The notes: generated from the sequence alone by a model not told the origin. Numbered from the stretch's first letter, positions 3,461-52,890 are shown. The stretch is DNA of 64,000 bases from Patescibacteria group bacterium (GCA_043798935.1 JAZDOC010000002.1:20874-84873); one strand, 5' to 3'. Program-made: numbers and translations.

Positions 3461-6067
3461 ATGCCAAAAGAAATTTCAAAAGCGTATGACGCAAATTTAG
3501 TAGAAAAAGATATTTACCAAGCCTGGGAAGAATCAGGCTTTTTTAATCCTGATAATTTAACTGATGCCAAAGACGCCTATTGCATCTCCATGCCTCCGCC
3601 AAATGTGACGGGCATTTTACATTTAGGCCACGCGCTCGAAAACACACTTATGGATATTGAAGTGCGCTATCAGAGAATGCAGGGTAAGAAAGCATTGCTT
3701 ATACCGGGGACTGATCATGCGGCTGTCGCCACCCAAGCCCGCGTGGAAGACAATCTAAAAAAACAAGGCATAGCAAATCCACGCCAACAGCTTGGTCGCG
3801 ATGGTTTATTAGAAAAAATCCGAGAATATGCTGAAGATTCAAAATCGAACATTCTTAATCAAATAAAGAGAATGGGTACAAGCTGCGATTGGTCGCGCCT
3901 AGCTTATACTTTTGATGAAACCCGTTCTGAGACCGTCTATACTATTTTTAAGAAAATGTATGAGGATAAATTAATTTATAAAGGATACCGAGTGGTTAAT
4001 TGGTCAGTGGTTGGGCAATCAACTTGTTCTGATGACGAACTAGTTTACGTTGACCAGCCAGCAAAAATTTATACTTTTAAATATAGTGCTGATTTTCCCA
4101 TAGCTATTGCTTCTACGAGGCCCGAAACAAAATTAGGCGATACGGCCGTAGCGGTTCATCCTGATGATGAAAGATATCAAAAATATATCGGCCAGAAATT
4201 TATCGTTGATGTTGGTACTGTAAAACCATTAACAATAAAAATAATTGCTGATAGCAATGTTGATCCAAAATACGGTACGGGCGCAGTTGGCGTGACGCCG
4301 GCGCACAGCCAAATTGATTTTGAAATGTATGAAAAAAATAAAGAGATTGGTTTAATTCAAGTAATCGGCCAAGATGGCAAGATGACTGAAAATGCCGGCC
4401 AAATATACGCCGGCCTATCGGCAGTTATGGCCCGAGAAAAATTTGTTGCCTGGTTGAAAGAAAATAATTTATTAATTGAAGAAAAGGAAACTGAACATAA
4501 TGTTGGCACTTCAGACCGCTTTAAGGATGTTGTTGAAGCCTTACCCATGGAACAGTGGTTTGTGGATGTAAATAAAAAAATTCCGTCAAAAAACAAAAGC
4601 TTAAAAGATCTAATGCGCACTGCTGTGACGTCGGGCTTAAATAATGATGTTAGTAAAAAAATATCAATTCAGCCGGAAAGGTTCAAGCAAACATATATGC
4701 AGTGGCTAGATAATTTACGCGACTGGAATATTTCCCGCCAAATTTGGTGGGGGCACCGCATTCCCATTTGGTATCGTGATGATGAAATCATAGTAAGTGA
4801 TGTCGCGCCAGACGGTAATGGCTGGAAGCAAGATGAAGATACGCTGGATACTTGGTTTTCATCCGGTACCTGGACATTCTCTACTTTAGGCTGGCCTAGC
4901 GAAACTAATGATTATAAAAATTACCACCCGACAGCCTGGATGCAAATGGGTTATGAAATATTATTTTTCTGGATGGCCAGAATGATTTTAATGTCGGCTT
5001 ATGCGCTGAATGATATTCCATTTAGAAGCGTATATATTCATGGAATCTTGCGTGATAAAGACGGCCAGAAATTTTCTAAATCAGCCGGCAACGGCATCGA
5101 TCCTATATTAATGATCGATAAGTATGGTTGCGACGCATTAAGAATGAGCTTAATCAAAGGCGTAACACCGGGCAATGATGCACGTTTTTATGAAGACAAA
5201 GTGCTGGCTTCTAGAAATTTTATCAATAAGTTGTGGAACGTCTCGCGCTATATCATCATGAGTAGCGATGAAATTAAAATATCACAATTAAATATCAACA
5301 CTGTAGCTGATCACTGGATAATTTCAAAATTACAAAATCTAATTCAATCCACTAAAGATAACTTAGACAAATACAATTTCAGCCAAGCCGGCGAAAATCT
5401 TTACGATTTCATGTGGCGAGATCTAGCTGATTGGTACTTAGAAATTACCAAGTTTCAACCTAACCAAGAAATATTAATTTATATCTTAGATAATTTGTTG
5501 CGTTTACTGCACCCTTTTATTCCGTTTGTGACCGAAGAAATTTGGCAAAATTTCGATACGGATAAATTATTAATGATTGAAGCCTGGCCCGTGGTAGACG
5601 GTAAGCTCATTGATAACGAAACCGAAGCTGAGTTTAAAAATATTCAGGATATTATTATTCAAATCAGAAACTTAAGAACTCAATATAAAATTGCACCGTC
5701 TAAAATTTTTGCCGTCTATACCCAAGCTGATATTCATGAAAATATAAAACAAATTATTTCTAAACTAGCCAGAGTAGAAATTAATTGTGCCTGGACAGAT
5801 GCAAAAAATAAAATTACTGAAGTATCTAACGCCGATTATAAATTCAAAATTATATTAGGCGAATTAATAGATATTGATGCTGAAAAAACCAGATTGGCCA
5901 AAGAAATTTTTGCTCTGGAAAAATATACCAGCAGTTTAGAAAAAAAATTAGCCAATAAAAATTTTACAGCCAACGCCCCGGCTCAGGTTATAGAGCAAGA
6001 ACTGGCCAAGTTGTCGGAAAAAACAAAAATCTTAAAAGATTTAAAAAAGAGTTTAGAAAATCTGTAA
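3461..6067 (+). CDS. valS: Valine--tRNA ligase
   Basis: Class I aaRS HIGH (LHLGHAL) and KMSKS (KFSKS) motifs. N-terminus KAYDANLVEKDIYQAWEESGFF and PPPNVTG typical of ValRS. C-terminal coiled coil (KLANKNFTANAPAQVIEQE). 868 aa. Confidence 0.9.
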   Translation: MPKEISKAYDANLVEKDIYQAWEESGFFNPDNLTDAKDAYCISMPPPNVTGILHLGHALENTLMDIEVRYQRMQGKKALLIPGTDHAAVATQARVEDNLKKQGIANPRQQLGRDGLLEKIREYAEDSKSNILNQIKRMGTSCDWSRLAYTFDETRSETVYTIFKKMYEDKLIYKGYRVVNWSVVGQSTCSDDELVYVDQPAKIYTFKYSADFPIAIASTRPETKLGDTAVAVHPDDERYQKYIGQKFIVDVGTVKPLTIKIIADSNVDPKYGTGAVGVTPAHSQIDFEMYEKNKEIGLIQVIGQDGKMTENAGQIYAGLSAVMAREKFVAWLKENNLLIEEKETEHNVGTSDRFKDVVEALPMEQWFVDVNKKIPSKNKSLKDLMRTAVTSGLNNDVSKKISIQPERFKQTYMQWLDNLRDWNISRQIWWGHRIPIWYRDDEIIVSDVAPDGNGWKQDEDTLDTWFSSGTWTFSTLGWPSETNDYKNYHPTAWMQMGYEILFFWMARMILMSAYALNDIPFRSVYIHGILRDKDGQKFSKSAGNGIDPILMIDKYGCDALRMSLIKGVTPGNDARFYEDKVLASRNFINKLWNVSRYIIMSSDEIKISQLNINTVADHWIISKLQNLIQSTKDNLDKYNFSQAGENLYDFMWRDLADWYLEITKFQPNQEILIYILDNLLRLLHPFIPFVTEEIWQNFDTDKLLMIEAWPVVDGKLIDNETEAEFKNIQDIIIQIRNLRTQYKIAPSKIFAVYTQADIHENIKQIISKLARVEINCAWTDAKNKITEVSNADYKFKIILGELIDIDAEKTRLAKEIFALEKYTSSLEKKLANKNFTANAPAQVIEQELAKLSEKTKILKDLKKSLENL

Positions 6068-10437: not shown

Positions 10438-10860
10438 TGTAACGACCTAGCTTGTCTAGGTCCGCTTACTTGGATCTTGTCTTGATTAAATAATGCTGTT
10501 GATAACTTGTTATTAATAAGATAATTTAAATACTTGACATAATTTAAGAAATCGATTAGGATAATAAAGCGGTTAATTTTATCCGTTTTTACAATAAAAA
10601 ACTACAAACGCTGAAATTAGTTAGAAAGCAACTCTAAGGTTTACTGGATCTATTTATAGAACTATTCGGAAAGTACTTTTTAACTGATTTCAGGGTTTTT
10701 ATTTTAACCTTGAATTAGCTAGTACTTTGACAACCAAATAAGTGACAAGAATTATATCATATTCTTCAATTCTTTTGACGATTTTCTAAAAATCGTTTAT
10801 TTACAATAAATTCCGGTAACAATATCTCTTCACAGAATGTTGTTACTTTATTTTTTTGCT

Positions 10861-12341
<1,481 letters not shown>

Positions 12342-12585
12342 AAGGAGTATAAAAATCCTGCTTCTTTAAAGAAGCAGCTGTCGCCAGTTTAGTTGTTTCG
12401 ACAATTATTCTGGGAGGTATAATTCTTGTCACCTTTTGGTTGTCAAAGCAACTGTGTATTTTTGCTGAGGCTGGATAATCCAGCCTTTTAAAATATTTAC
12501 AATCTTTGGTGTTTTTGGTAGACTATATCTTGTTTAAAATCAAGATATTAAAAATTGCTAATTGTAAAATTGAAAATCGTTATAC

Positions 12586-12659
12586 GGGCATATAGCTCAG
12601 TTGGTTAGAGCGCAGTCCTGATAAGACTGAGGTCCCTCGTTCGAATCGAGGTATGCCCA
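12586..12659 (+). tRNA. tRNA-Ile (anticodon GAT)
   Basis: Cloverleaf read by eye. Anticodon loop CTGATAA. Acceptor GGGCATA/TATGCCC. Confidence 0.85.
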
Positions 12660-12666
12660 CTGGTGA

Positions 12667-12739
12667 GCCGCGGTAGCTCAGCGGTAGAGCAAGGGACTGA
12701 AAATCTCTGTGTCGGTGGTTCGACTCCGCCCCGCGGCAC
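12667..12739 (+). tRNA. tRNA-Phe (anticodon GAA)
   Basis: Near-identical to canonical bacterial tRNA-Phe (GCCGCGGTAGCTCAG…ACTGAAAATC…GGTTCGACTCCGCCCCGCGGCA). Confidence 0.85.
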
Positions 12740-12820
12740 CTGAAATTATTTGATTATTAATTTTCAATTTAATAATCAACCCTCATCGAAAATTGTGAAA
12801 TTGAAAATTGAAAATTATAT

Positions 12821-12896
12821 CGGGGTGTGGCCTAGTGGCTAAGGCGTTCGCTTTGGGAGCGAAAGATCGAGAGTTCAAGTCTCTCCACCCCGACCA
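12821..12896 (+). tRNA. tRNA-Pro (anticodon TGG)
   Basis: CGGGGTG…TTTGGGA loop…CACCCCGACCA. CCA encoded. Confidence 0.8.
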
Positions 12897-12898
12897 TT

Positions 12899-12972
12899 GC
12901 GGGTGTCGTATAATGGTAATACCTCAGCTTTCCAAGCTGATGCCAGGGGTTCGATTCCCCTCACCCGCTCCA
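12899..12972 (+). tRNA. tRNA-Gly (anticodon TCC)
   Basis: GCGGGTG…CTTTCCAAG…GGTTCGATTCCCCTCACCCGCTCCA. Confidence 0.8.
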
Positions 12973-12975
12973 GAT

Positions 12976-13050
12976 GGCGTGGTAGCCAAGTGGTAAGGCA
13001 ACGGTTTGCAAAACCGTTATGCGTCGGTTCAAATCCGTCCCACGCCTCCA
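12976..13050 (+). tRNA. tRNA-Cys (anticodon GCA)
   Basis: GGCGTGG…TTGCAAA loop…GGTTCAAATCCGTCCCACGCCTCCA. Confidence 0.8.
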
Positions 13051-38238: not shown

Positions 38239-38402
38239 TTTACGCCCCTGGAAATGGCTGTCAACAGATATGACAGAATTAGCATTTTTTAAAATATATT
38301 TGGCTGAAATTAGCTAAATTTATAAATAAATGTTGTTATAATAATTGACAAAATACACCAATTTGCTAAGTTGTACACATAATATAATAACTAAAAAATT
38401 CC

Positions 38403-38434
38403 CCCTCTCCGGAAGCGGAGAGGGGGCCGGGGGT
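38403..38434 (+). promoter_or_regulatory. Second copy of the polypyrimidine/polypurine hairpin (CCCCCTCTCC-ggaagc-GGAGAGGGGG) plus GGGGGTGAGG Shine-Dalgarno, ahead of TrmB-like paralog 1
   Basis: Read directly. Parallels 2438-2467. Confidence 0.4.
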
Positions 38435-38442
38435 GAGGTATT

Positions 38443-39204
38443 ATGGATCTAGCCAAAGACTTAACAAGATTGGGCTTATCAGACAGCGAAGCAAAAGTGT
38501 ATTTGTCTTGTCTTCAGCTAGGCAGGGAAACAGTTTTGAATATCGCTAAACACGCTGATCTTAAGAGACCAAGCGTTTATTTGCTTTTAGAAAATTTAGA
38601 GAAACGAGGGTTAGTTACAAAAACCAAAAAAGCTCATAAAACTTTTTTTAAAGCTGAGGAGCCGGGGCGTTTACTTTCTGGTTTAAAAATGCAAGAAGAA
38701 GTAGTTAATTCTATCCTGCCCTCTTTAGAAGCTATTTATAACATTGATCCTAAAAAACCAAATATTAAAATCGCTGAAGGAAATCAAAGCGTGGCTAATG
38801 TCTATAACGGCATTTTTAATTTCATAGCTAACCATCCTAAAGAAGAATTATTAATTTTCGGTGCGCTAAAAGAAGCTAGTAAATATTTTCAAGATGAAGT
38901 ACAAGATTATTTTATGAAAGTAATGGCTAAATCAAAAAATAGAATTAGAGAAGTAGGAAACAATGACCCTGAAACCAGAAGATATTTCCGCCAAGCCCAC
39001 CGCATTAACCCTAATCATGAAATCAGATTAATTAGATCTGACGGAAGTTTTCAATGTGATAATATGATTTTTGGAAACACAGTAGTCATATTTTCTGTAG
39101 ACGAACAAATCTTCTCCACTATTATAGAATCAGCTGCTATTGCCCAAACTTATCGCACCATGTTTAATATGGCCTGGAAAGCCGGAAAGAAATATATTAT
39201 TTAA
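38443..39204 (+). CDS. TrmB-like helix-turn-helix transcriptional regulator, paralog 1
   Basis: N-terminus LTRLGLSDSEAKVYLSCLQLGRETVLNIAKHADLKRPSVYLLLENLEKRGLV matches the TrmB-family wHTH. Conserved C-terminal …F(N/E/D)(M/I)(A/V)W shared with the other two paralogs. Confidence 0.6.
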   Translation: MDLAKDLTRLGLSDSEAKVYLSCLQLGRETVLNIAKHADLKRPSVYLLLENLEKRGLVTKTKKAHKTFFKAEEPGRLLSGLKMQEEVVNSILPSLEAIYNIDPKKPNIKIAEGNQSVANVYNGIFNFIANHPKEELLIFGALKEASKYFQDEVQDYFMKVMAKSKNRIREVGNNDPETRRYFRQAHRINPNHEIRLIRSDGSFQCDNMIFGNTVVIFSVDEQIFSTIIESAAIAQTYRTMFNMAWKAGKKYII

Positions 39205-40036: not shown

Positions 40037-40822
40037 ATGAATGACAAAATAAAAAAGGCGTTGCAAGAAATCGGCTTAAGTGCAAACGAAGCCAAGCTTT
40101 TTTTGGCGACCTTACAACTTGGAGCTTCAAATATTTCCCAACTCGCTAAAGCTGCGAAAATCAAAAGACCCACGGCTTATTTAGCGTGCGAATCATTGCT
40201 CACAAAAAAGATGTTGCTCGTGGATAAAAAAAATCCTAGCCGTCCTGTATATAAAGCTAGTGATCCACAAAATATTTTAAATGATATTCGAAAAAAAGAA
40301 GAAATTTTTACCAGCATTTTTCCGGAATTACGACGCGTTAGTAAACAAGAATTATTACCTCATGTTCAAATTGCCGTAGACTACGAAGATATAATAAATT
40401 TGTATCGCGAACTCCTAGACCATTCTGCAAAAAAAGAAGTGATGATCTATGGCACTATTAGCCCTGAAGGTAATGAAGAAATTCATAGTAAGCTTTTAAA
40501 ATATTGGATGCGAATGCTAAAGGTAAAACCGGTTAAAATTAGAGAGATTCTAACTTATACGGATCAAAATTTAAACTACGTTCGGCAAGTAGAAAAAAAC
40601 GGCAATAAAAACCACCGAATAAAAGTCATCCCGGAAACTTTTCAGTATTTACCATATCGCATGAAAATCTTAGACGGCGATAATTTTATTTACGATAATA
40701 AAGTAGTTTCTTTTTCATCCTACAAAGAAAGTTTTTATGCGCTAGTTATTCACCATGCTCATATTTATAATATTTACAGAGATTTATTTGAAATGGCTTG
40801 GGAAATGGCTGAAGAAGGCTAA
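40037..40822 (+). CDS. TrmB-like helix-turn-helix transcriptional regulator, paralog 2
   Basis: LQEIGLSANEAKLFLATLQLGASNISQLAKAAKIKRPTAYLACESLLTKKML… wHTH. Shared C-terminal motif. Confidence 0.6.
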   Translation: MNDKIKKALQEIGLSANEAKLFLATLQLGASNISQLAKAAKIKRPTAYLACESLLTKKMLLVDKKNPSRPVYKASDPQNILNDIRKKEEIFTSIFPELRRVSKQELLPHVQIAVDYEDIINLYRELLDHSAKKEVMIYGTISPEGNEEIHSKLLKYWMRMLKVKPVKIREILTYTDQNLNYVRQVEKNGNKNHRIKVIPETFQYLPYRMKILDGDNFIYDNKVVSFSSYKESFYALVIHHAHIYNIYRDLFEMAWEMAEEG

Positions 40823-42423
40823 TAAATCTCTTTCTTATAGCAATCTTCACAATAAACTTTTTCCGGTCTGCCAGATGAGTAGGTTGATTTTATTTTAGTG
40901 CGGCATTTATTACATTCTCGATCATAAATTTTATTATTATTTCTCCAAGTTAAACGCTCAGCATAACGACACTGATAACACTTATCAGGTTCTAGTAGAT
41001 TATGTTGTTTATAAAAATTAATTTCTTGGGGAATTAATTTAAAATTTTTCTGACAAGTTTTGCATTGCTTAATGTCTTTTGGTAGAGACACGCCATGGCG
41101 TGTCTCTGCATCATCATTTAACCACTGCCAGTCATTTTTTTCTGTTTGTTCTTTATCTAAAGGAAAATAATCCTGGGCATTGGTTTCATTGTAGGCGAAC
41201 AGACTATTTTTAACTGGCATAAACTCTCCCCATTCATTATTCTGCTTCATATACTCAACAATCTGTTTAGTTAATTTATTGTATTCGTCTTCGGAATATT
41301 TTTTATTCAAAATGCAATACTCTTGTTTTTTTAATGATGAACATCCAAAAATAAATTTAGAATTTTGGCAATCAAATGAATAAAAATTATCATTACCGCC
41401 ACAGCAATTTATTGATCCGATTGAGTGTCTGGGCATAGGATAGCTTTCTAAATTTTCATAACCAAATTCACCCACGCCACCATATTCACAATCATAAGAA
41501 TCTTTTATCTGCACCATATTACTTACATGTTTACATTTGTCAGCTTCATGCAAATCAAAACAATTTTCACAATCCTTAGTATTATTTAAATAATCCCCAG
41601 TGGAATTAATAATGCGGCCTAGCTGATTTCGATAACTATGGACAGCTTTATTTTTTATTAAATCTTTAAACTTTTTTAATGCTTCTTGTTGCCCTTCTGA
41701 AGTATTTAATTTTAATTCAGCTAGTTTTTTTTCGTACTCTTCTTTTATATATTGTTTATTCAAAAAACAATATTGTTTATTTCTTAGGTTATAACACATA
41801 GTGCAATTCTGAATATTACGGCAATCATAACAAAATTTGCTTTCGTTTGCAGAAAAACATTTTATTAAAAATTCGCATTCATATAATCTTTCGCCAAAAA
41901 AACTTTGATAAGCCAATTCGGACTTAGTGACATGAAAACAATCAACACAATTTTTACAATATTGCAGCCAGTTGGAATAATAACATTGCTCATTATAGTC
42001 TGAAGAAAAAATCAAATAACAACTGCGATTATTGGTTGTTAGATGCGTATAGGCGGAGTTTTCTGATTTTAAATCAAGCACGGCAATTTGCGGAGTTTTT
42101 AAGATTAGCTCATGCCACTGTTTAAAGAAATCTTTATTAAAATCAAATTCTTGTCCATAATCAAGTGGATTGAATTTGTCTGACCACCAGCAATCACGGC
42201 AATATACAGTTAAACCCGTATCGGGTTTATATTGAGAAATTATTGGTTTGTGGCAAAGGTCGCAAGTACGCTGATATAAATTTCTTTCATTTCTATGAGC
42301 CATTCGTCTTTGCCGCCGGCAATCCGGACACAGCGATGGCTCATTTACATTTATGCGTTTATAAAAGTCTTTATCCTCGCTTGTGGTTTCAAATTGTTTC
42401 GAACATTGGTTACATTGTTTCAT
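40819..42423 (-). CDS. Cysteine-rich protein (534 aa, ~45 Cys) with duplicated N- and C-terminal double zinc-ribbon-like modules; function unknown
   Basis: N-term CxxC…FY…EP..CxxCR…RN..LY.R.CxxC…YCxDC repeated near the C-terminus. Central repeats end in (Q/E)YC(F/I)LNK(Q/K)Y. Palindrome AGAGACACGCC-ATGG-CGTGTCTCT embedded at 41085-41108. Confidence 0.5.
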   Translation of the reverse strand: MKQCNQCSKQFETTSEDKDFYKRINVNEPSLCPDCRRQRRMAHRNERNLYQRTCDLCHKPIISQYKPDTGLTVYCRDCWWSDKFNPLDYGQEFDFNKDFFKQWHELILKTPQIAVLDLKSENSAYTHLTTNNRSCYLIFSSDYNEQCYYSNWLQYCKNCVDCFHVTKSELAYQSFFGERLYECEFLIKCFSANESKFCYDCRNIQNCTMCYNLRNKQYCFLNKQYIKEEYEKKLAELKLNTSEGQQEALKKFKDLIKNKAVHSYRNQLGRIINSTGDYLNNTKDCENCFDLHEADKCKHVSNMVQIKDSYDCEYGGVGEFGYENLESYPMPRHSIGSINCCGGNDNFYSFDCQNSKFIFGCSSLKKQEYCILNKKYSEDEYNKLTKQIVEYMKQNNEWGEFMPVKNSLFAYNETNAQDYFPLDKEQTEKNDWQWLNDDAETRHGVSLPKDIKQCKTCQKNFKLIPQEINFYKQHNLLEPDKCYQCRYAERLTWRNNNKIYDRECNKCRTKIKSTYSSGRPEKVYCEDCYKKEIY

Positions 42424-42441
42424 AATGTTTAATATAAATTA

Positions 42442-42984
42442 TTAATTTAATATAATCAAGATACTTGATATTTTATTTAAAATATTTATAGAAAAATTTG
42501 TGTGCCGCCAGCTCTCTCTCGAGATCCAGCGGTTGTATCTCCAGAAGCACTCAGCTTCGTCTAAATATCCTTCAGACCAGTGGGGGCCCGAAGGAAGTTC
42601 ATGCCCGCTTATGAGTGCTCCCATAGGATTTTCAAATTCGAATACACAATAATGTAATGTTCTTACCATTTTATATTCGGGGTCAGCATACCAAAGACCC
42701 GGAAACATTATGGCAGGGTGCATTACCATATTATGGTAATAAAAATCCAGTAATTCATTAGTAGGGATTTCATTGCAGTATTTCTTGATCCACAAGAAAT
42801 CTTCTTCGCTGTAACGTCGTAGCTGCAAGGCCTCTTTCCACTGTTTTTCACTAGTCACAGATACCACGGTGAACTCACGTCCACCGAGGACCACTGTTTC
42901 AGGCAGTTTGCTTGAGATGTACATTGTATTTTCCTTTGATATCCAAAGCGCGAGATTACGCATGGAGTTCCGTTGTTGGAACAA
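42442..42984 (-). CDS. Hypothetical protein (180 aa), Trp/Tyr-rich, higher GC
   Basis: ORF only; no family recognised. Confidence 0.35.
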   Translation of the reverse strand: MFQQRNSMRNLALWISKENTMYISSKLPETVVLGGREFTVVSVTSEKQWKEALQLRRYSEEDFLWIKKYCNEIPTNELLDFYYHNMVMHPAIMFPGLWYADPEYKMVRTLHYCVFEFENPMGALISGHELPSGPHWSEGYLDEAECFWRYNRWISRESWRHTNFSINILNKISSILIILN

Positions 42985-43085
42985 CTCATAATAAACTATA
43001 CTGAATATATGTCAATTTTATGATTAGTTTTTTTGCTAAGATTAGATATTTTGCTAACTTTAGTAAAAATATTATGTCAAAAATA

Positions 43086-43114
43086 TTGACATTTATAAAA
43101 AAATTAGATAAAAT
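43086..43114 (+). promoter_or_regulatory. Sigma70-type promoter TTGACA-17 nt-TAAAAT upstream of TrmB-like paralog 3
   Basis: Read directly. Predicted TSS ~43121, placing the palindrome TGATCGAC-cttgtg-TCGATCA in the leader. Confidence 0.45.
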
Positions 43115-43158
43115 AAAAATGTTATGATCGACCTTGTGTCGATCAGATAATAAAACAT

Positions 43159-43923
43159 ATGAACTATAAACAAGTATTAAAACAATTCGGCCTTACAGAC
43201 AAAGAAACAGAAATATATCTGGCTTGTTTGCAGTTAGGAAACGACACAGTTCTTAACATTGCTAACAAAGCCGAAATAAAACGACCTACAACATATAATA
43301 TTCTCGAAGACCTAATCGAAAAAGGATTAATTTCAAGAAGCAAACAAAACAATAAAAACATATATATTGCTGAAAATCCGGATAAGCTCAATAAATTAGC
43401 CCAAATCAATAAAAACAACATTGAAGCGATCATTCCAGATTTGAACGCTATATATAATGTTCCACGTGGAACTTCAAAACCAACTATTAAAGTATATGAA
43501 GGATTAAATGCTGTTAAAAGTGTTTATTTAGAAATAATGGATTCTATTAAAGGCAAAGATTTAATGAGATTATATGGATCTATGAGCGATGTGGAGGAAA
43601 ACTTTAAAGATATTACCCATTTTTGGGCAGAAAAGAATCAGTATAAAAATTATCATATTAATGATTTATTAAATCCTGATTTATCCGAAAACCAAAAGTT
43701 TATAAATTCAATTAAAAGCATTGATAATCCAAATTATAAAATCAGATCATTGCCACAGGAGTATAAATTCAATAATATAGATAATATCATCTACAAAAAT
43801 ACAATAGCTATTATTTCTGTTAAAAAAGATATTACTGCTACTGTTATTGAAAACGAAGATATAGCCAATGCCTATAAAACAATGTTCGATATTGTTTGGA
43901 ATATATCAAAAGAAATAAAATAA
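43159..43923 (+). CDS. TrmB-like helix-turn-helix transcriptional regulator, paralog 3
   Basis: LKQFGLTDKETEIYLACLQLGNDTVLNIANKAEIKRPTTYNILEDLIEKGLI… wHTH. Shared C-terminal motif. Confidence 0.6.
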   Translation: MNYKQVLKQFGLTDKETEIYLACLQLGNDTVLNIANKAEIKRPTTYNILEDLIEKGLISRSKQNNKNIYIAENPDKLNKLAQINKNNIEAIIPDLNAIYNVPRGTSKPTIKVYEGLNAVKSVYLEIMDSIKGKDLMRLYGSMSDVEENFKDITHFWAEKNQYKNYHINDLLNPDLSENQKFINSIKSIDNPNYKIRSLPQEYKFNNIDNIIYKNTIAIISVKKDITATVIENEDIANAYKTMFDIVWNISKEIK

Positions 43924-43959
43924 TTATCAATGTTCCACGTGGAACAAAAATCAATATAT

Positions 43960-43993
43960 AATGAAGGCGCGATTACGTAATCGCGCCTTCATT
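43960..43993 (+). terminator. Perfect palindrome AATGAAGGCGCGATTACGTAATCGCGCCTTCATT (terminator of TrmB-like paralog 3)
   Basis: 34-bp perfect inverted repeat followed by a T-rich run. A relative is at 8098-8133. Confidence 0.55.
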
Positions 43994-44005
43994 ATTTTAT
44001 TATTA

Positions 44006-44219
44006 TGTGGACCCTAGGAGAGTTGCCCGCCCGAGGCGGGTCCGCCTTAGGCGGAAATTCCTGAACTTCCCGACGTGACGTCGGCACGCTCTATAGTAAA
44101 AACTGATTAAAATGTGGACCCTAGGAGAGTTGCCCGCCCGAGGCGGGTCCGCCTTAGGCGGAAATTCCTGAACTTCCCGACGTGACGTCGGCACGCTCTA
44201 TAGTAAAAACTGATTAAAA
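44006..44219. repeat. Two identical 107-bp tandem direct repeats, each starting with a copy of the 3' end of the adjacent tRNA-Ala (TGTGGACCCTAGGAGAG) followed by three GC-rich hairpins
   Basis: Units 44006-44112 and 44113-44219 are identical by eye. The third unit position is the genuine tRNA-Ala gene. Looks like att-site/integration scars or a tRNA-end duplication. Confidence 0.7.
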
Positions 44220-44221
44220 TG

Positions 44222-44297
44222 TGGTGGACCCTAGGAGATTCGAACTCCTGACCTCTCCCATGCCATGGGAGCGCTCTACCAACTGAGCTAAGGGCCC
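44222..44297 (-). tRNA. tRNA-Ala (anticodon GGC), CCA encoded
   Basis: Reverse complement GGGCCCTTAGCTCAGTTGGTAGAGCGCTCCC-ATGGCAT-GGGAG…GGAGTTCGAATCTCCTAGGGTCCACCA. Confidence 0.75.
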
Positions 44298-44406
44298 GTT
44301 TTCTCAAATATATTTTGACACACAATTATTATCATACACCTTTTCGACAATAATTTCAATAGTAATGCTGTGGGTAATACTACTGTGGTGTCATTATATC
44401 ATTTTG

Positions 44407-44478
44407 TGCCCCCGGGGGGAATCGGACCACCATCTAGGCTTTAGGAGTGCCTTGTTCTATCCATTGAACTACGGGGAC
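44407..44478 (-). tRNA. tRNA-like sequence, probably tRNA-Arg (anticodon CCT); degenerate, possible pseudogene
   Basis: Good acceptor stem (with G·U) and D-arm (GTAGTTCAATGGATAGAAC). The anticodon loop CTCCTAA reads CCT in a canonical loop context (A-A mismatch at the loop-closing pair). The T-stem carries a T-C mismatch and the T-loop reads TCCGATT, not canonical. Confidence 0.35.
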
Positions 44479-44607
44479 TTATAATATTGTTTGTTATCCA
44501 TTGCCAGCCCGAAGCTGGTCCGCCTTTGGCGAAAACTACGATGATAATATATTATGAAATCTTAAATATATTTGCTAACACTAGCTATTTTTAAGTGTCG
44601 TAAAATA

Positions 44608-44748
44608 CTATTTCTGTAATATTGAAGTATAAAATGAATGAGCCCAAGATTCTAATTTATTACTTCTTGAATCATAAATAATTAAAAGAGCCAAAATTAA
44701 AATAAAACTAGCAATTAAAGCAAAGATCATTAACAAATCTTTTTTCAT
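44608..44748 (-). CDS. Candidate small hydrophobic peptide (46 aa, single TM)
   Basis: ATG…TAG ORF, MKKDLLMIFALIASFILILALLIIYDS… Below the size cutoff of the supplied ORF track. Confidence 0.2.
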   Translation of the reverse strand: MKKDLLMIFALIASFILILALLIIYDSRSNKLESWAHSFYTSILQK

Positions 44749-44907
44749 GTGGGATTGATCCATATTTTTTTTATTTGAGCTTAATTTTTTATTAAAATCT
44801 AATTATATATTTTATCAACATTTTGAAATTCCACAAGGGTATTTACAAACCGACTATCCTATTATAATCTATATACTGCTTTTTATCCAAATATTAAAAA
44901 AAATTTT

Positions 44908-45315
44908 ATGCGTCCCATGTTTAAAAGTGAAGATGAAGGCTACACCAGCCAAGAAGCCGAAACTATTATCGGCAAGTCTGTTAAAATTGAAGGAACGTTC
45001 AACGGTGAAGGAAATATTATTGTCGAAGGTGAAGTAGAGGGAAATTTAAAAACCAATGAAGACCTAATTGTAAAACCAGGCGCAAAAATTTCAGCTGATG
45101 TTGAAGCCGCTAACATGAAAATTTCCGGTGAAATTAAAGGCAACATTAAATGTCATGGCAGTTTGGAAATTACTAGTACTGGTAATGTAATGGGAGATCT
45201 TGAAACTAAAATATTATCAATTGCATCGGGAGCAGTTTTAAAAGGCCAGTGTCAAGTTGAAGGAGCTAGCGGCTCTACTTTTTCTTCAGAAACCGAAACT
45301 GATGATCAAGAATAA
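44908..45315 (+). CDS. Bactofilin-family cytoskeletal protein
   Basis: Beta-helical repeat pattern (…ISGEIKGNIKCHGSLEITSTGNVMGDLET…). 135 aa. Confidence 0.65.
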   Translation: MRPMFKSEDEGYTSQEAETIIGKSVKIEGTFNGEGNIIVEGEVEGNLKTNEDLIVKPGAKISADVEAANMKISGEIKGNIKCHGSLEITSTGNVMGDLETKILSIASGAVLKGQCQVEGASGSTFSSETETDDQE

Positions 45316-52641: not shown

Positions 52642-52777
52642 CTTAAAAAAACACATGAAACTACATTAGTTTAAAAAAATCGGTTCGGAAAAAGTCAAAA
52701 ATAATTTATTCTTTATATCGCGGATTATTTACATACATTTAGAACCTGTTATAATACAAACACAATTAAATCACTAA

Positions 52778-52890
52778 CTGTTAGAGGCGCTCCTAATGGG
52801 GCTGAGAAGTACTCTTAACACCTGATCTAGATAATGCTAGCGCAGGGAAACAGAATATAAACTGTTTTCTTGCGATAAAACAGTTTTTTT
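52778..52890 (+). ncRNA. TPP (thiamine pyrophosphate) riboswitch (THI element) with terminator expression platform
   Basis: P1 CTGTT…AACAG. Conserved GGGGCTGAGA, ACCTGATCTAGATAATGCTAGCGCAGGGAA. Downstream hairpin AAACTGTTTT-n8-AAAACAGTTT plus T8 abutting the thiN start codon. Confidence 0.85.

Follow-up and report, generated by a model that had tools for sequence, protein, structure and literature searches.

In a 64,000-nt stretch of DNA from a Patescibacteria group bacterium (GCA_043798935.1, JAZDOC010000002.1:20874-84873; hereafter the window, with positions counted from its first letter), two tandem units of 107 nt directly follow a working tRNA-Ala(GGC) gene on the minus strand. With a probability of roughly 60%, this array originated by duplication of the tRNA gene, insertion of a 30-nt double-hairpin element (DHE) and then a recent tandem duplication of 107 bp. 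These small events would replace, at this locus, the account given in the initial annotation of the window, which had regarded the repeated tRNA 3' ends as attachment (att) sites left by an integrase. The features on which the argument rests are the following.

44006-44112, minus strand: unit 1, read as a dead copy that derives from tRNA-Ala(GGC) over 77 nt and contains an inserted DHE of 30 nt, with the ancestral 3' flank retained beside the terminator.
44113-44219, minus strand: unit 2, a tandem copy of unit 1 (100% identical), directly downstream of the working tRNA-Ala.
44006-44025 in unit 1 and 44113-44132 in unit 2, minus strand: tRNA-Ala 3' segment (3' half of the T-loop, T-stem and acceptor 3' strand), CAACTCTCCTAGGGTCCACA.
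44026-44055, minus strand: DHE copy 1, TCCGCCTAAGGCGGACCCGCCTCGGGCGGG (covariance model R1, 54.4 bits), inserted at GGAATT^CAACTCTCC in the T-loop.
44133-44162, minus strand: DHE copy 2, within unit 2.
44070-44084, with a second copy at 44177-44191, no strand assigned: perfect palindrome CCGACGTCACGTCGG at the position expected for the anticodon arm.
44222-44297, minus strand: working tRNA-Ala(GGC), called by ARAGORN and scoring 65.9 bits with the Rfam tRNA model, with an encoded CCA and the T-loop TTCGAAT.

Each of the two units (44006-44112 and 44113-44219) has a length of 107 nt, and they agree at every base (100% identity); Tandem Repeats Finder describes the array with a period of 107, 2.2 copies and a score of 441. 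The 3' end of each unit on the minus (tRNA) strand reads ...CTCTCCTAGGGTCCACA, and that of the real tRNA-Ala(GGC) at 44222-44297 reads ...ATCTCCTAGGGTCCACCA; the 64 kb contain three copies of the 15-mer GTGGACCCTAGGAGA, as compared with an expectation of zero. Alignment of the units with each other and with the tRNA, which the initial annotation had proposed as a check, thus bears out both its claim of identical 107-bp units and its description of the unit ends as the tRNA-Ala 3' terminus minus one triplet, as 15 nt are shared with the 3' end of tRNA-Ala and the units are CCA-less.

Metagenome contigs and loci, designated below by L-numbers (L131, L122 and so on), were fetched for comparison, the closest relatives being L131, in which TrmB is 84% identical, and L128, in which TrmB is 73% identical and synteny extends through DAGK and IF-2. 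Both carry a single tRNA-Ala(GGC) immediately after the TrmB terminator, and neither gene encodes a CCA, their ends being ...GGGTCCACAAT and ...GAGTCCACATA, respectively. Over its final 20 nt, CAACTCTCCTAGGGTCCACA, the unit agrees with the 3' end of the L131 tRNA-Ala(GGC) at all 20 of 20 positions, and the T-loop of L131 is TTCAACT as against TTCGAAT in the working tRNA-Ala of the window. The 3' segment of the unit is tRNA-derived and of the ancestral type. Since the tRNA-Ala genes of L131 and L128 lack the CCA and the 3' 20 nt of the unit equal the L131 end, the 'missing triplet' of the units is the ancestral state. For the extra triplet of the working tRNA, simple CCA-CCA slippage can suffice; an origin of the working tRNA as a retro-copy, for which its encoded CCA might have spoken, was dropped, as CCA is encoded by five of the nine tRNAs of the window, the working tRNA-Ala among them.

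After removal of the DHE the unit measures 77 nt, approximately the length of one tRNA. Of its last 31 nt, 29 agree with the L131 tRNA-Ala, and the preceding 46 nt align in register with tRNA-Ala, with TAGAGCG at offset 19 in both, followed in the unit by a hairpin in place of the anticodon arm and then by AGkTCAGGA. When the 57 nt before the DHE were compared with 88 tRNAs from all fetched loci, all six tRNA-Ala(GGC) genes scored highest, together with one tRNA-Val of equal score. The units are without a 5' acceptor strand, gave no match to the tRNA model RF00005 even at E<=10 and gave no ARAGORN match; they have no tRNA function, because neither this strand nor a valid anticodon loop is present.

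Each unit harbors three perfect GC-rich hairpins, CCGACGT-C-ACGTCGG, TCCGCC-TAA-GGCGGA and CCCGCC-TCG-GGCGGG, all of which had been noticed initially and all of which are present in both units. Seven distinct perfect GC-rich hairpins (stem >=6) exist in the whole window, and those of the units account for six. The seventh strong hairpin, also perfect, is CCCCCTCTCCGGAAGCGGAGAGGGGG at 38401-38426, just upstream of the first of the TrmB paralogues described below. Two of the three unit hairpins form the DHE, TCCGCC-yAA-GGCGGA-CCmGCC-TCG-GGCkGG, which is a precise 30-nt insertion: the junction in the units reads GGAATT^[30 nt]^CAACTCTCC, compared with GGAGTT^CAACTCTCC in the T-loop of L131. A third copy of the DHE lies at the neighboring tRNA-Arg gene.

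44406-44478, minus strand: tRNA-Arg(CCT), called by ARAGORN and Rfam (50.6 bits).
44487-44540, minus strand: partial 5' duplicate of tRNA-Arg around DHE copy 3, just upstream of the real tRNA-Arg gene.
44504-44533, minus strand: DHE copy 3, TTCGCCAAAGGCGGACCAGCTTCGGGCTGG (R1, 50.8 bits), with a compensatory stem change relative to copies 1 and 2.

The gene first described as tRNA-Arg-like is a good tRNA-Arg(CCT), and the degenerate hairpin pair reported beyond it exists, its position being 44503-44531 (with the element at 44504-44533) rather than 44496-44530. After removal of the 30 nt, TATCCATTG^AACTACG matches the D-loop region of tRNA-Arg at 16 of 16 positions, and the same arrangement, a DHE in a 5' tRNA-Arg fragment, is found at tRNA-Arg(TCT) in L077. 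With the covariance model, just three DHE copies are detected in the window, and the close relatives' loci yield none. In eight metagenome contigs, excising exactly 30 nt restores the match to the neighboring intact tRNA at nine DHE sites (the second L122 copy included), and the same rejoining is seen at two sites of the window, namely the identical pair of tRNA-Ala-derived units and the tRNA-Arg fragment. The sites on other contigs are:

tRNA-Ser: L026, L035, L072 (29/29), L104 and L122 (35/35; longer copy 72/72).
Other tRNAs: tRNA-Arg(TCT) in L077, tRNA-Pro in L109 and tRNA-Leu in L075.

All rejoined tRNA sites fall within a D-loop or a T-loop, with target duplication at none of them, and in L122 there are tRNA copies that bear the DHE and are almost of full length. 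In tRNA loops, here as well as at other loci, the DHE is an insertion of exactly 30 nt. Its presence only in a broken tRNA copy would be the outcome expected from selection on single-copy essential tRNAs, and the occurrence of 5' fragments upstream and 3' fragments downstream of intact tRNAs follows geometrically from partial tandem duplication and is not by itself proof of a coupled mechanism.

At the tRNA-Ser sites of L026, L035, L072, L104, and L122, open reading frames (ORFs) of ~81 aa resembling GIY-YIG nucleases lie between or beside DHE-bearing 5' tRNA-Ser fragments and the intact tRNA-Ser (for example at 5110-5360 in L122 and at 556-798 in L104). In L104 a direct repeat, consisting of the 5' part of the tRNA and 11 nt of upstream flank, brackets the GIY-YIG ORF, and the arrangement looks like a homing cassette aimed at the D-loop. 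Inserts of other GC-rich families were observed at the same kinds of site, each of 40 nt, in the T-loop of a pseudo-tRNA-Ser (L122, ~4975-5015) and at the D-loop position of a 5' tRNA-Arg fragment (L001, ~1700-1745).

The window is AT-rich (GC ~36%), and the array is located inside a 1-kb intergenic region that extends from a TrmB-like gene (43159-43923, plus strand) to a bactofilin-like gene (44908, plus strand); the relatives of the IF-2 encoded nearby come from Patescibacteria and Kerfeldbacteria metagenome-assembled genomes. Two further features delimit the tRNA locus.

43958-43995, no strand assigned: bidirectional terminator-like hairpin, which closes the TrmB-like gene (plus strand) and would also close the tRNA-Arg/tRNA-Ala transcript (minus strand).
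44331-44359, minus strand: promoter-like site TTGAAA-17-TATGAT upstream of tRNA-Ala, in a flank kept in L131.

The hairpin at 43958-43995, which follows unit 1, is the only terminator-like site in 43958-44900. Because the promoter-side flank of the working tRNA-Ala is conserved in L131 and the leftmost unit occupies the tRNA position of the relatives, abutting the terminator, the amplification is internal to the ancestral tRNA locus. At the same locus L131 and L128 have no repeat array and no hairpin pair, the DHE being missing at both tRNA-Arg and tRNA-Ala, so that the array differs between relatives, as the initial annotation had expected of a variable array. Most likely, the units are carried passively in the 3' trailer of the tRNA-Arg/tRNA-Ala transcript, ahead of the terminator shared with the TrmB-like gene.

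The comparison with relatives also bears on the idea of an att-like relic, according to which a cassette with its own tRNA-Ala 3' end (TTCGAAT plus CCA) displaced the native end, whereupon its cargo was deleted and the remnant duplicated. As at att sites, a 15-nt core is identical in the intact tRNA and the displaced copy, and the displaced copies have kept the ancestral end (CAACT in an L131-type T-loop, without CCA), from which the 3' part of the working gene differs; moreover, the array is missing from the close relatives, and on other contigs the DHE-bearing tRNA-Ser 5' fragments look cassette-like, with their GIY-YIG gene and direct repeats. However, no recombinase was found beside the array, the flanking ORFs being the syntenic TrmB-like, zinc-finger, bactofilin-like, DAGK and IF-2 set, and Pfam calls on the syntenic genes of L128 yielded no recombinase either. 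Integrase, GIY-YIG gene and other cargo are all missing here: a tblastn search of the 64-kb window with the GIY-YIG ORF gave no match, and only 46 nt plus the 30-nt DHE separate successive tRNA 3'-end cores. Furthermore, the period without the DHE is one tRNA length with a body that best matches tRNA-Ala in register, the unit body and the junction between tRNA end and element are both without a match in viral contigs, and the CCA is no foreign mark, given its presence in five of the nine window tRNAs. Nor is the hairpin pair att-arm DNA, for it belongs to a dispersed 30-nt family, the DHE, with members in at least 120 unrelated contexts. We consider an att-like relic quite unlikely. From the initial annotation, mobile-element activity at a tRNA gene is retained, whereas attL/attR formation by an integrase through serial integration and excision is not, in view of the lack of integrase and cargo. 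A viral origin was also considered and rejected, as the hairpin-pair pattern, the palindrome of the unit body and the tRNA-end/element junction each had zero matches in viral contigs.

According to the preferred explanation, that of tRNA gene duplication followed by DHE insertion, the tRNA-Ala(GGC) gene would have been tandemly repeated, with the promoter-proximal copy staying functional and the downstream copy either disabled by the DHE or already spare when the DHE arrived. The DHE would have entered the T-loop precisely at GTT^CAA, without target duplication, after which the copy decayed. The disabled copy, in which 77 nt derive from the tRNA and 30 nt are the DHE (107 nt in all), would then have been duplicated very recently by unequal recombination or slippage between direct repeats, which would therefore account for the 100% identity of the units. 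Slippage, which had been offered initially as an alternative to integration, is together with unequal crossing-over the simplest source of two identical 107-nt units. The order of these events, and a first duplication that covered the whole tRNA, are what we infer from the present arrangement.

Several observations weigh against this reconstruction. The 5' 46 nt alone are only weakly tRNA-like, their local score being reached by 225 of 3000 shuffles (p ~0.075), and the uneven divergence inside the unit may mean that the first duplication comprised only the 3' third of the tRNA and a spacer. In that case, the 3' third (from approximately position 42) would have been copied with ~46 nt of unrelated trailer, and the likeness of the body to the 5' two-thirds of the tRNA would be due to chance; this differs from the preferred explanation in the extent of the first event only. 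The short fragments, rather than whole copies, at L075, L109, and L077 agree with such a partial duplication, but the 77-nt period, the identical offset of TAGAGCG, the six tRNA-Ala(GGC) genes at the top among the 88 tRNAs and the nearly full-length copies in L122 speak for a whole copy, and we consider a partial duplication unlikely. Further points concern the working gene and the unit itself. The working tRNA has the T-loop TTCGAAT as compared with the TTCAACT type in the units, and CCA is encoded only in the working tRNA, a difference that requires either changes after the duplication or replacement of the 3' part of the working tRNA. The perfect palindrome at the anticodon-arm position is unlike what neutral decay would leave; searches of the window, of the fetched loci and of viral contigs gave no further copy of CCGACGTCACGTCGG. 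Transcription of the units would follow from the positions of the promoter-like and terminator-like sites, and two is their number in the assembly.

Copy number leads to the question of whether the second unit is an assembly artefact, i.e. a mis-resolved short repeat in a metagenome-assembled genome (MAG). The window apparently comes from a MAG, as a 100% identical TrmB-family protein is so named, and exact 107-nt repeats are shorter than typical reads, which makes their number hard to fix; look-ups of three window proteins by exact identity, for independent assemblies of the array, returned none on record. On the other hand, assemblers usually collapse such repeats and do not expand them, and duplicated DHE-bearing tRNA fragments are present in the independent contig L122. 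An artefact is accordingly very unlikely, and the main conclusion would hold even with one unit.

An even less probable explanation is that the units serve as a functional RNA or DNA signal, such as a stabilizing or processing trailer, a mimic of the tRNA 3' end, or a protein-binding or DnaA-related site near a putative replication origin. When the unit was folded as RNA, a check proposed with the initial annotation, its fold was better than that of shuffled sequences (z = -2.7); family-wide, the hairpins are maintained by compensatory changes, and the array is situated at a GC-skew minimum and strand switch near DnaA-box-like sites. Yet the array is missing at the same locus in the closest relatives, and the same 30-mer is found inside unrelated protein genes, which assigns the conservation to the element and not to the locus. 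No Rfam family reached threshold, the best being RAGATH-32 with 21.8 bits as compared with a gathering score of 41.8. The hairpins are not followed by a T-run, and the unit start TGTGGACCC agrees with a DnaA box at only six of nine positions. Accordingly, the candidate identities were rejected: Rfam matches of the units or the terminator (RAGATH-32, permuted tmRNA and several sRNAs) are sub-threshold noise, only the two true tRNAs passing (gathering; E<=10), the TGTGGA of the unit start is a poor fit to a DnaA box, and the unit hairpins, having no T tails, are not intrinsic terminators.

In the region of the array the cumulative GC skew reaches its minimum, the genes change strand (mostly minus from 16 to 43 kb, all plus from 44.9 to 62 kb) and three DnaA-box-like sites are present, i.e. 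9-mers with <=1 mismatch at 44369, 44812, and 44883 in the AT-rich gap, which together span 44369-44891. Because these three signals coincide, a replication origin is probably located near the array, in the window at 44300-44900 (context 42000-45000); no dnaA gene was identified beside this putative origin.

Three paralogues of TrmB-family helix-turn-helix regulators lie within 6 kb (38443-39204, 40037-40822, and 43159-43923), all on the plus strand among mostly minus-strand genes. A perfect 16-nt palindrome, TGTTCCACGTGGAACA, is found just past the stop codon of the TrmB-like gene (43931-43946) and inside that gene (43458-43473); elsewhere it occurs at L001 1122, L004 3164 and 3601, L128 4763, L129 2796, L130 1627, L131 300, 792 and 1035, and L132 381, in the same places in all close relatives and also near some of their tRNAs, and in none of the 120 contigs with the hairpin element. 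A role as terminator, or as operator for the TrmB-family regulator, is possible. In L001 (1318-1430), 'ttattattaTGTGGA' and the GTGGA of the tRNA-Ala 3' end are separated by a spacer of exactly 107 nt; this spacer has GC hairpins of its own and ends in ...TCCACA, and 22 nt, cattattttattattatgtgga, are common to L001 and the left edge of the window array. The spacer may be an older, decayed unit or a coincidence. Elsewhere in the window, at 10855-13050, a 16S rRNA gene is followed by a cluster of five tRNAs instead of the 23S rRNA gene, so that the rRNA genes are unlinked, and a thiamine pyrophosphate (TPP) riboswitch is present at 52773-52865.

The hairpin pair of the units is a member of a large family. 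A degenerate pattern that covers both window variants, GCCCGANGCNGGTCCGCCTTNGGCG, was scanned against metagenome contigs and gave at least 123 matches in at least 120 contigs, in unrelated genes as well as at tRNA loci; the same pattern had zero matches in viral contigs, and the consensus DHE had no match in phage and plasmid collections. The sense-strand consensus of the 30 nt is TCCGCC-CAA-GGCGGA-CCAGCC-TCG-GGCTGG. Among the matches listed, 73 of 117 copies are identical, the flanks have the consensus TTT before and [G/A/C]A[A] after the element, and 91 of 123 matches lie in a single orientation and frame within a long open frame, where they encode the peptide SAQGGPASGW; the CCCGCC/GGCGGG stem variant encodes an ending ...SGG. 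No stop codon occurs in any of the six frames of the consensus. Two minus-strand ORFs that were called mechanically across the units and the tRNA (44003-44194 and 44107-44325, 63 and 72 aa) are by-products of the stop-free DHE and are not to be annotated as genes.

Host proteins of the DHE, according to a Pfam scan of seven, are MurA, DnaG primase, UvrC, DnaJ, a MiaB-type radical SAM protein, a GT4 glycosyltransferase and a PMT_2 membrane transferase; by sequence inspection only, a ClpB/ClpC-type ATPase and a UvrD/PcrA-type helicase can be added. The latter kind is represented in L087 by an ORF of 1414 aa (UvrD/PcrA-like) with the DHE peptide at residue 187 and a large internal segment of intein-like appearance. 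Among MurA orthologues that are 85-88% identical to the host (named homologues come from Staskawiczbacteria, Nealsonbacteria and Patescibacteria), the insert is present in two, absent in four and replaced by a different insert at the same loop in two. Comparison with solved MurA structures places the insert within a variable loop, where the indel is not a clean 10 residues. The proteins P0023 and P0029 carry the peptide NSGLPRRSA.RND at the MurA loop that bears SAQGGPASGW in other orthologues. The 14 DHE-bearing DnaJ proteins have a median identity of ~45%, a value computed from a set of 15 rows in which L054 appears twice and one protein is not a DnaJ; the site of insertion differs among them, though not in every case, and some have two DHE copies at different points of the G/F-region. 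As the 30-mer is near-invariant although the DnaJ hosts are only ~45% identical and the insertion points differ, simple vertical descent with neutral drift cannot explain it.

Diverged DHE copies at other loci have compensatory stems (TCGGCC/GGCCGA, TCAGCC/GGCTGA, TGCGCC/GGCGCA, and TCCACC/GGTGGA). Over the 29 distinct variants compared, double changes affect 6 of the 12 stem pairs, and pairing is kept in 97.1% of cells; none of 500 shuffles reached this level, and slid controls were paired at 18-52%. Both hairpins of the DHE are supported by this stem covariation. Empty sites are provided by the intact tRNA paralogues, which equal the joined flanks in the eight contigs and at the two window sites, and by the MurA orthologues without the insert. 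These data show that the DHE is dispersed, that its structure is under constraint and that orthologues are polymorphic for it.

For its movement, insertion directed by sequence and structure at TTT^NAA and mobilization in trans may be proposed as a guess, in the manner of elements of the IS200/IS605-REP type (REP, repetitive extragenic palindromic) or of mitochondrial hairpin elements. The precise insertion, the lack of target duplication, the short target TTT^NAA and the orientation bias would resemble single-strand transposition of the IS200/IS605-REP type, and the same traits would also fit the mitochondrial hairpin elements. A wider proposal, which we put forward as doubtful and tentative, is that the DHE is an active element mobilized in trans and transferred horizontally across divergent Patescibacteria, inserting at TTT^NAA without duplication, with a preference for hairpin loops such as the D- and T-loops of tRNAs and in fixed orientation relative to transcription or replication, and that it is tolerated in proteins as a 10-residue loop and takes part in tRNA-fragment turnover. 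If so, only duplicated copies would be hit at essential tRNA genes, so that the DHE would drive or mark the turnover of fragments, sometimes together with GIY-YIG genes; it would then be the smallest widely distributed bacterial mobile element described, with a mechanism that is possibly based on RNA or single-stranded DNA. A mobile DHE would provide a compact and readily recognized marker of horizontal exchange among uncultured bacteria of the candidate phyla radiation (CPR), as well as a tractable case for target choice and duplication-free movement of hairpin elements. For annotation, the DHE matters as a source of spurious ORFs, of 10-residue protein inserts and of tRNA-like fragments that can be mistaken for att sites.

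The array and the DHE can be compared with several known systems. Tandem tRNA duplication with pseudogenization likewise yields head-to-tail copies with a period of about one tRNA, of which the downstream copies fail the tRNA model; here, in contrast, inactivation is associated with a defined mobile insertion in the T-loop, and the DHE pattern recurs at tRNAs for Arg, Ser, Pro, and Leu in other genomes. The tRNA att sites of genomic islands and prophages share with the array a direct repeat of the tRNA 3' end downstream of an intact tRNA, the displacement of an older allele and a variable presence, whereas this locus has neither an integrase nor cargo (76 nt between cores), its unit has the length of one tRNA, and its hairpins are those of an independent, dispersed family.

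Rickettsia palindromic elements (RPE) are palindromic selfish elements of ~100-150 bp that are found in frame in protein genes and also in RNA genes; to our knowledge, they are confined to Rickettsia. Like the DHE, RPEs are dispersed in a reduced AT-rich bacterial genome, occur in frame in protein genes as well as in RNA genes, are translated as extra loops and vary in presence among orthologues. The DHE differs in being 30 nt long (two 15-nt hairpins) and unrelated in sequence, in its near-identity across lineages whose DnaJ proteins are ~45% identical and in its strong bias for a single frame (SAQGGPASGW). RPEs are mentioned in PMC1779305. Mitochondrial GC clusters, double-hairpin elements and repetitive hairpin-forming elements of Allomyces, yeasts and sponges occupy intergenic DNA, rRNA genes and protein genes, and the hairpin elements of Allomyces lack target duplications, on which ground an RNA route has been suggested (PMC2800124). 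Both groups consist of short GC-rich single or double hairpins that spread in AT-rich genomes, without target duplication in the case of Allomyces; the mitochondrial elements are, however, organellar and not from a free bacterial genome and have no sequence similarity to the DHE, and the parts of PMC2800124 consulted do not describe insertion in the D- or T-loops of tRNA copies or a 10-codon in-frame peptide for them. REP elements are extragenic, are marked by a GTAG or CGTC tag and are accompanied by a RAYT gene (PMC3337134; PMC3733652). The REP/REPIN-RAYT systems and IS200/IS605-derived palindromes have in common with the DHE short hairpins, no target duplication, a short specific target and an orientation bias, and mobilization in trans is plausible, whereas the ends of the DHE lack GTAG or CGTC by inspection and most DHE copies are intragenic.

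No description of the DHE family was found in the literature, subscription journals lying outside the search. The DHE remains almost invariant where housekeeping proteins have diverged to ~45% identity, and it resides in frame in essential genes and in the loops of tRNA copies. Small palindromic selfish elements in ORFs and RNA genes are already known, and the DHE is of that kind; it is distinct by its size (30 nt, exactly 10 codons), its broad and near-invariant spread over deep Patescibacteria lineages, its single-frame bias and its recurrence in the D- and T-loops of tRNA fragments.

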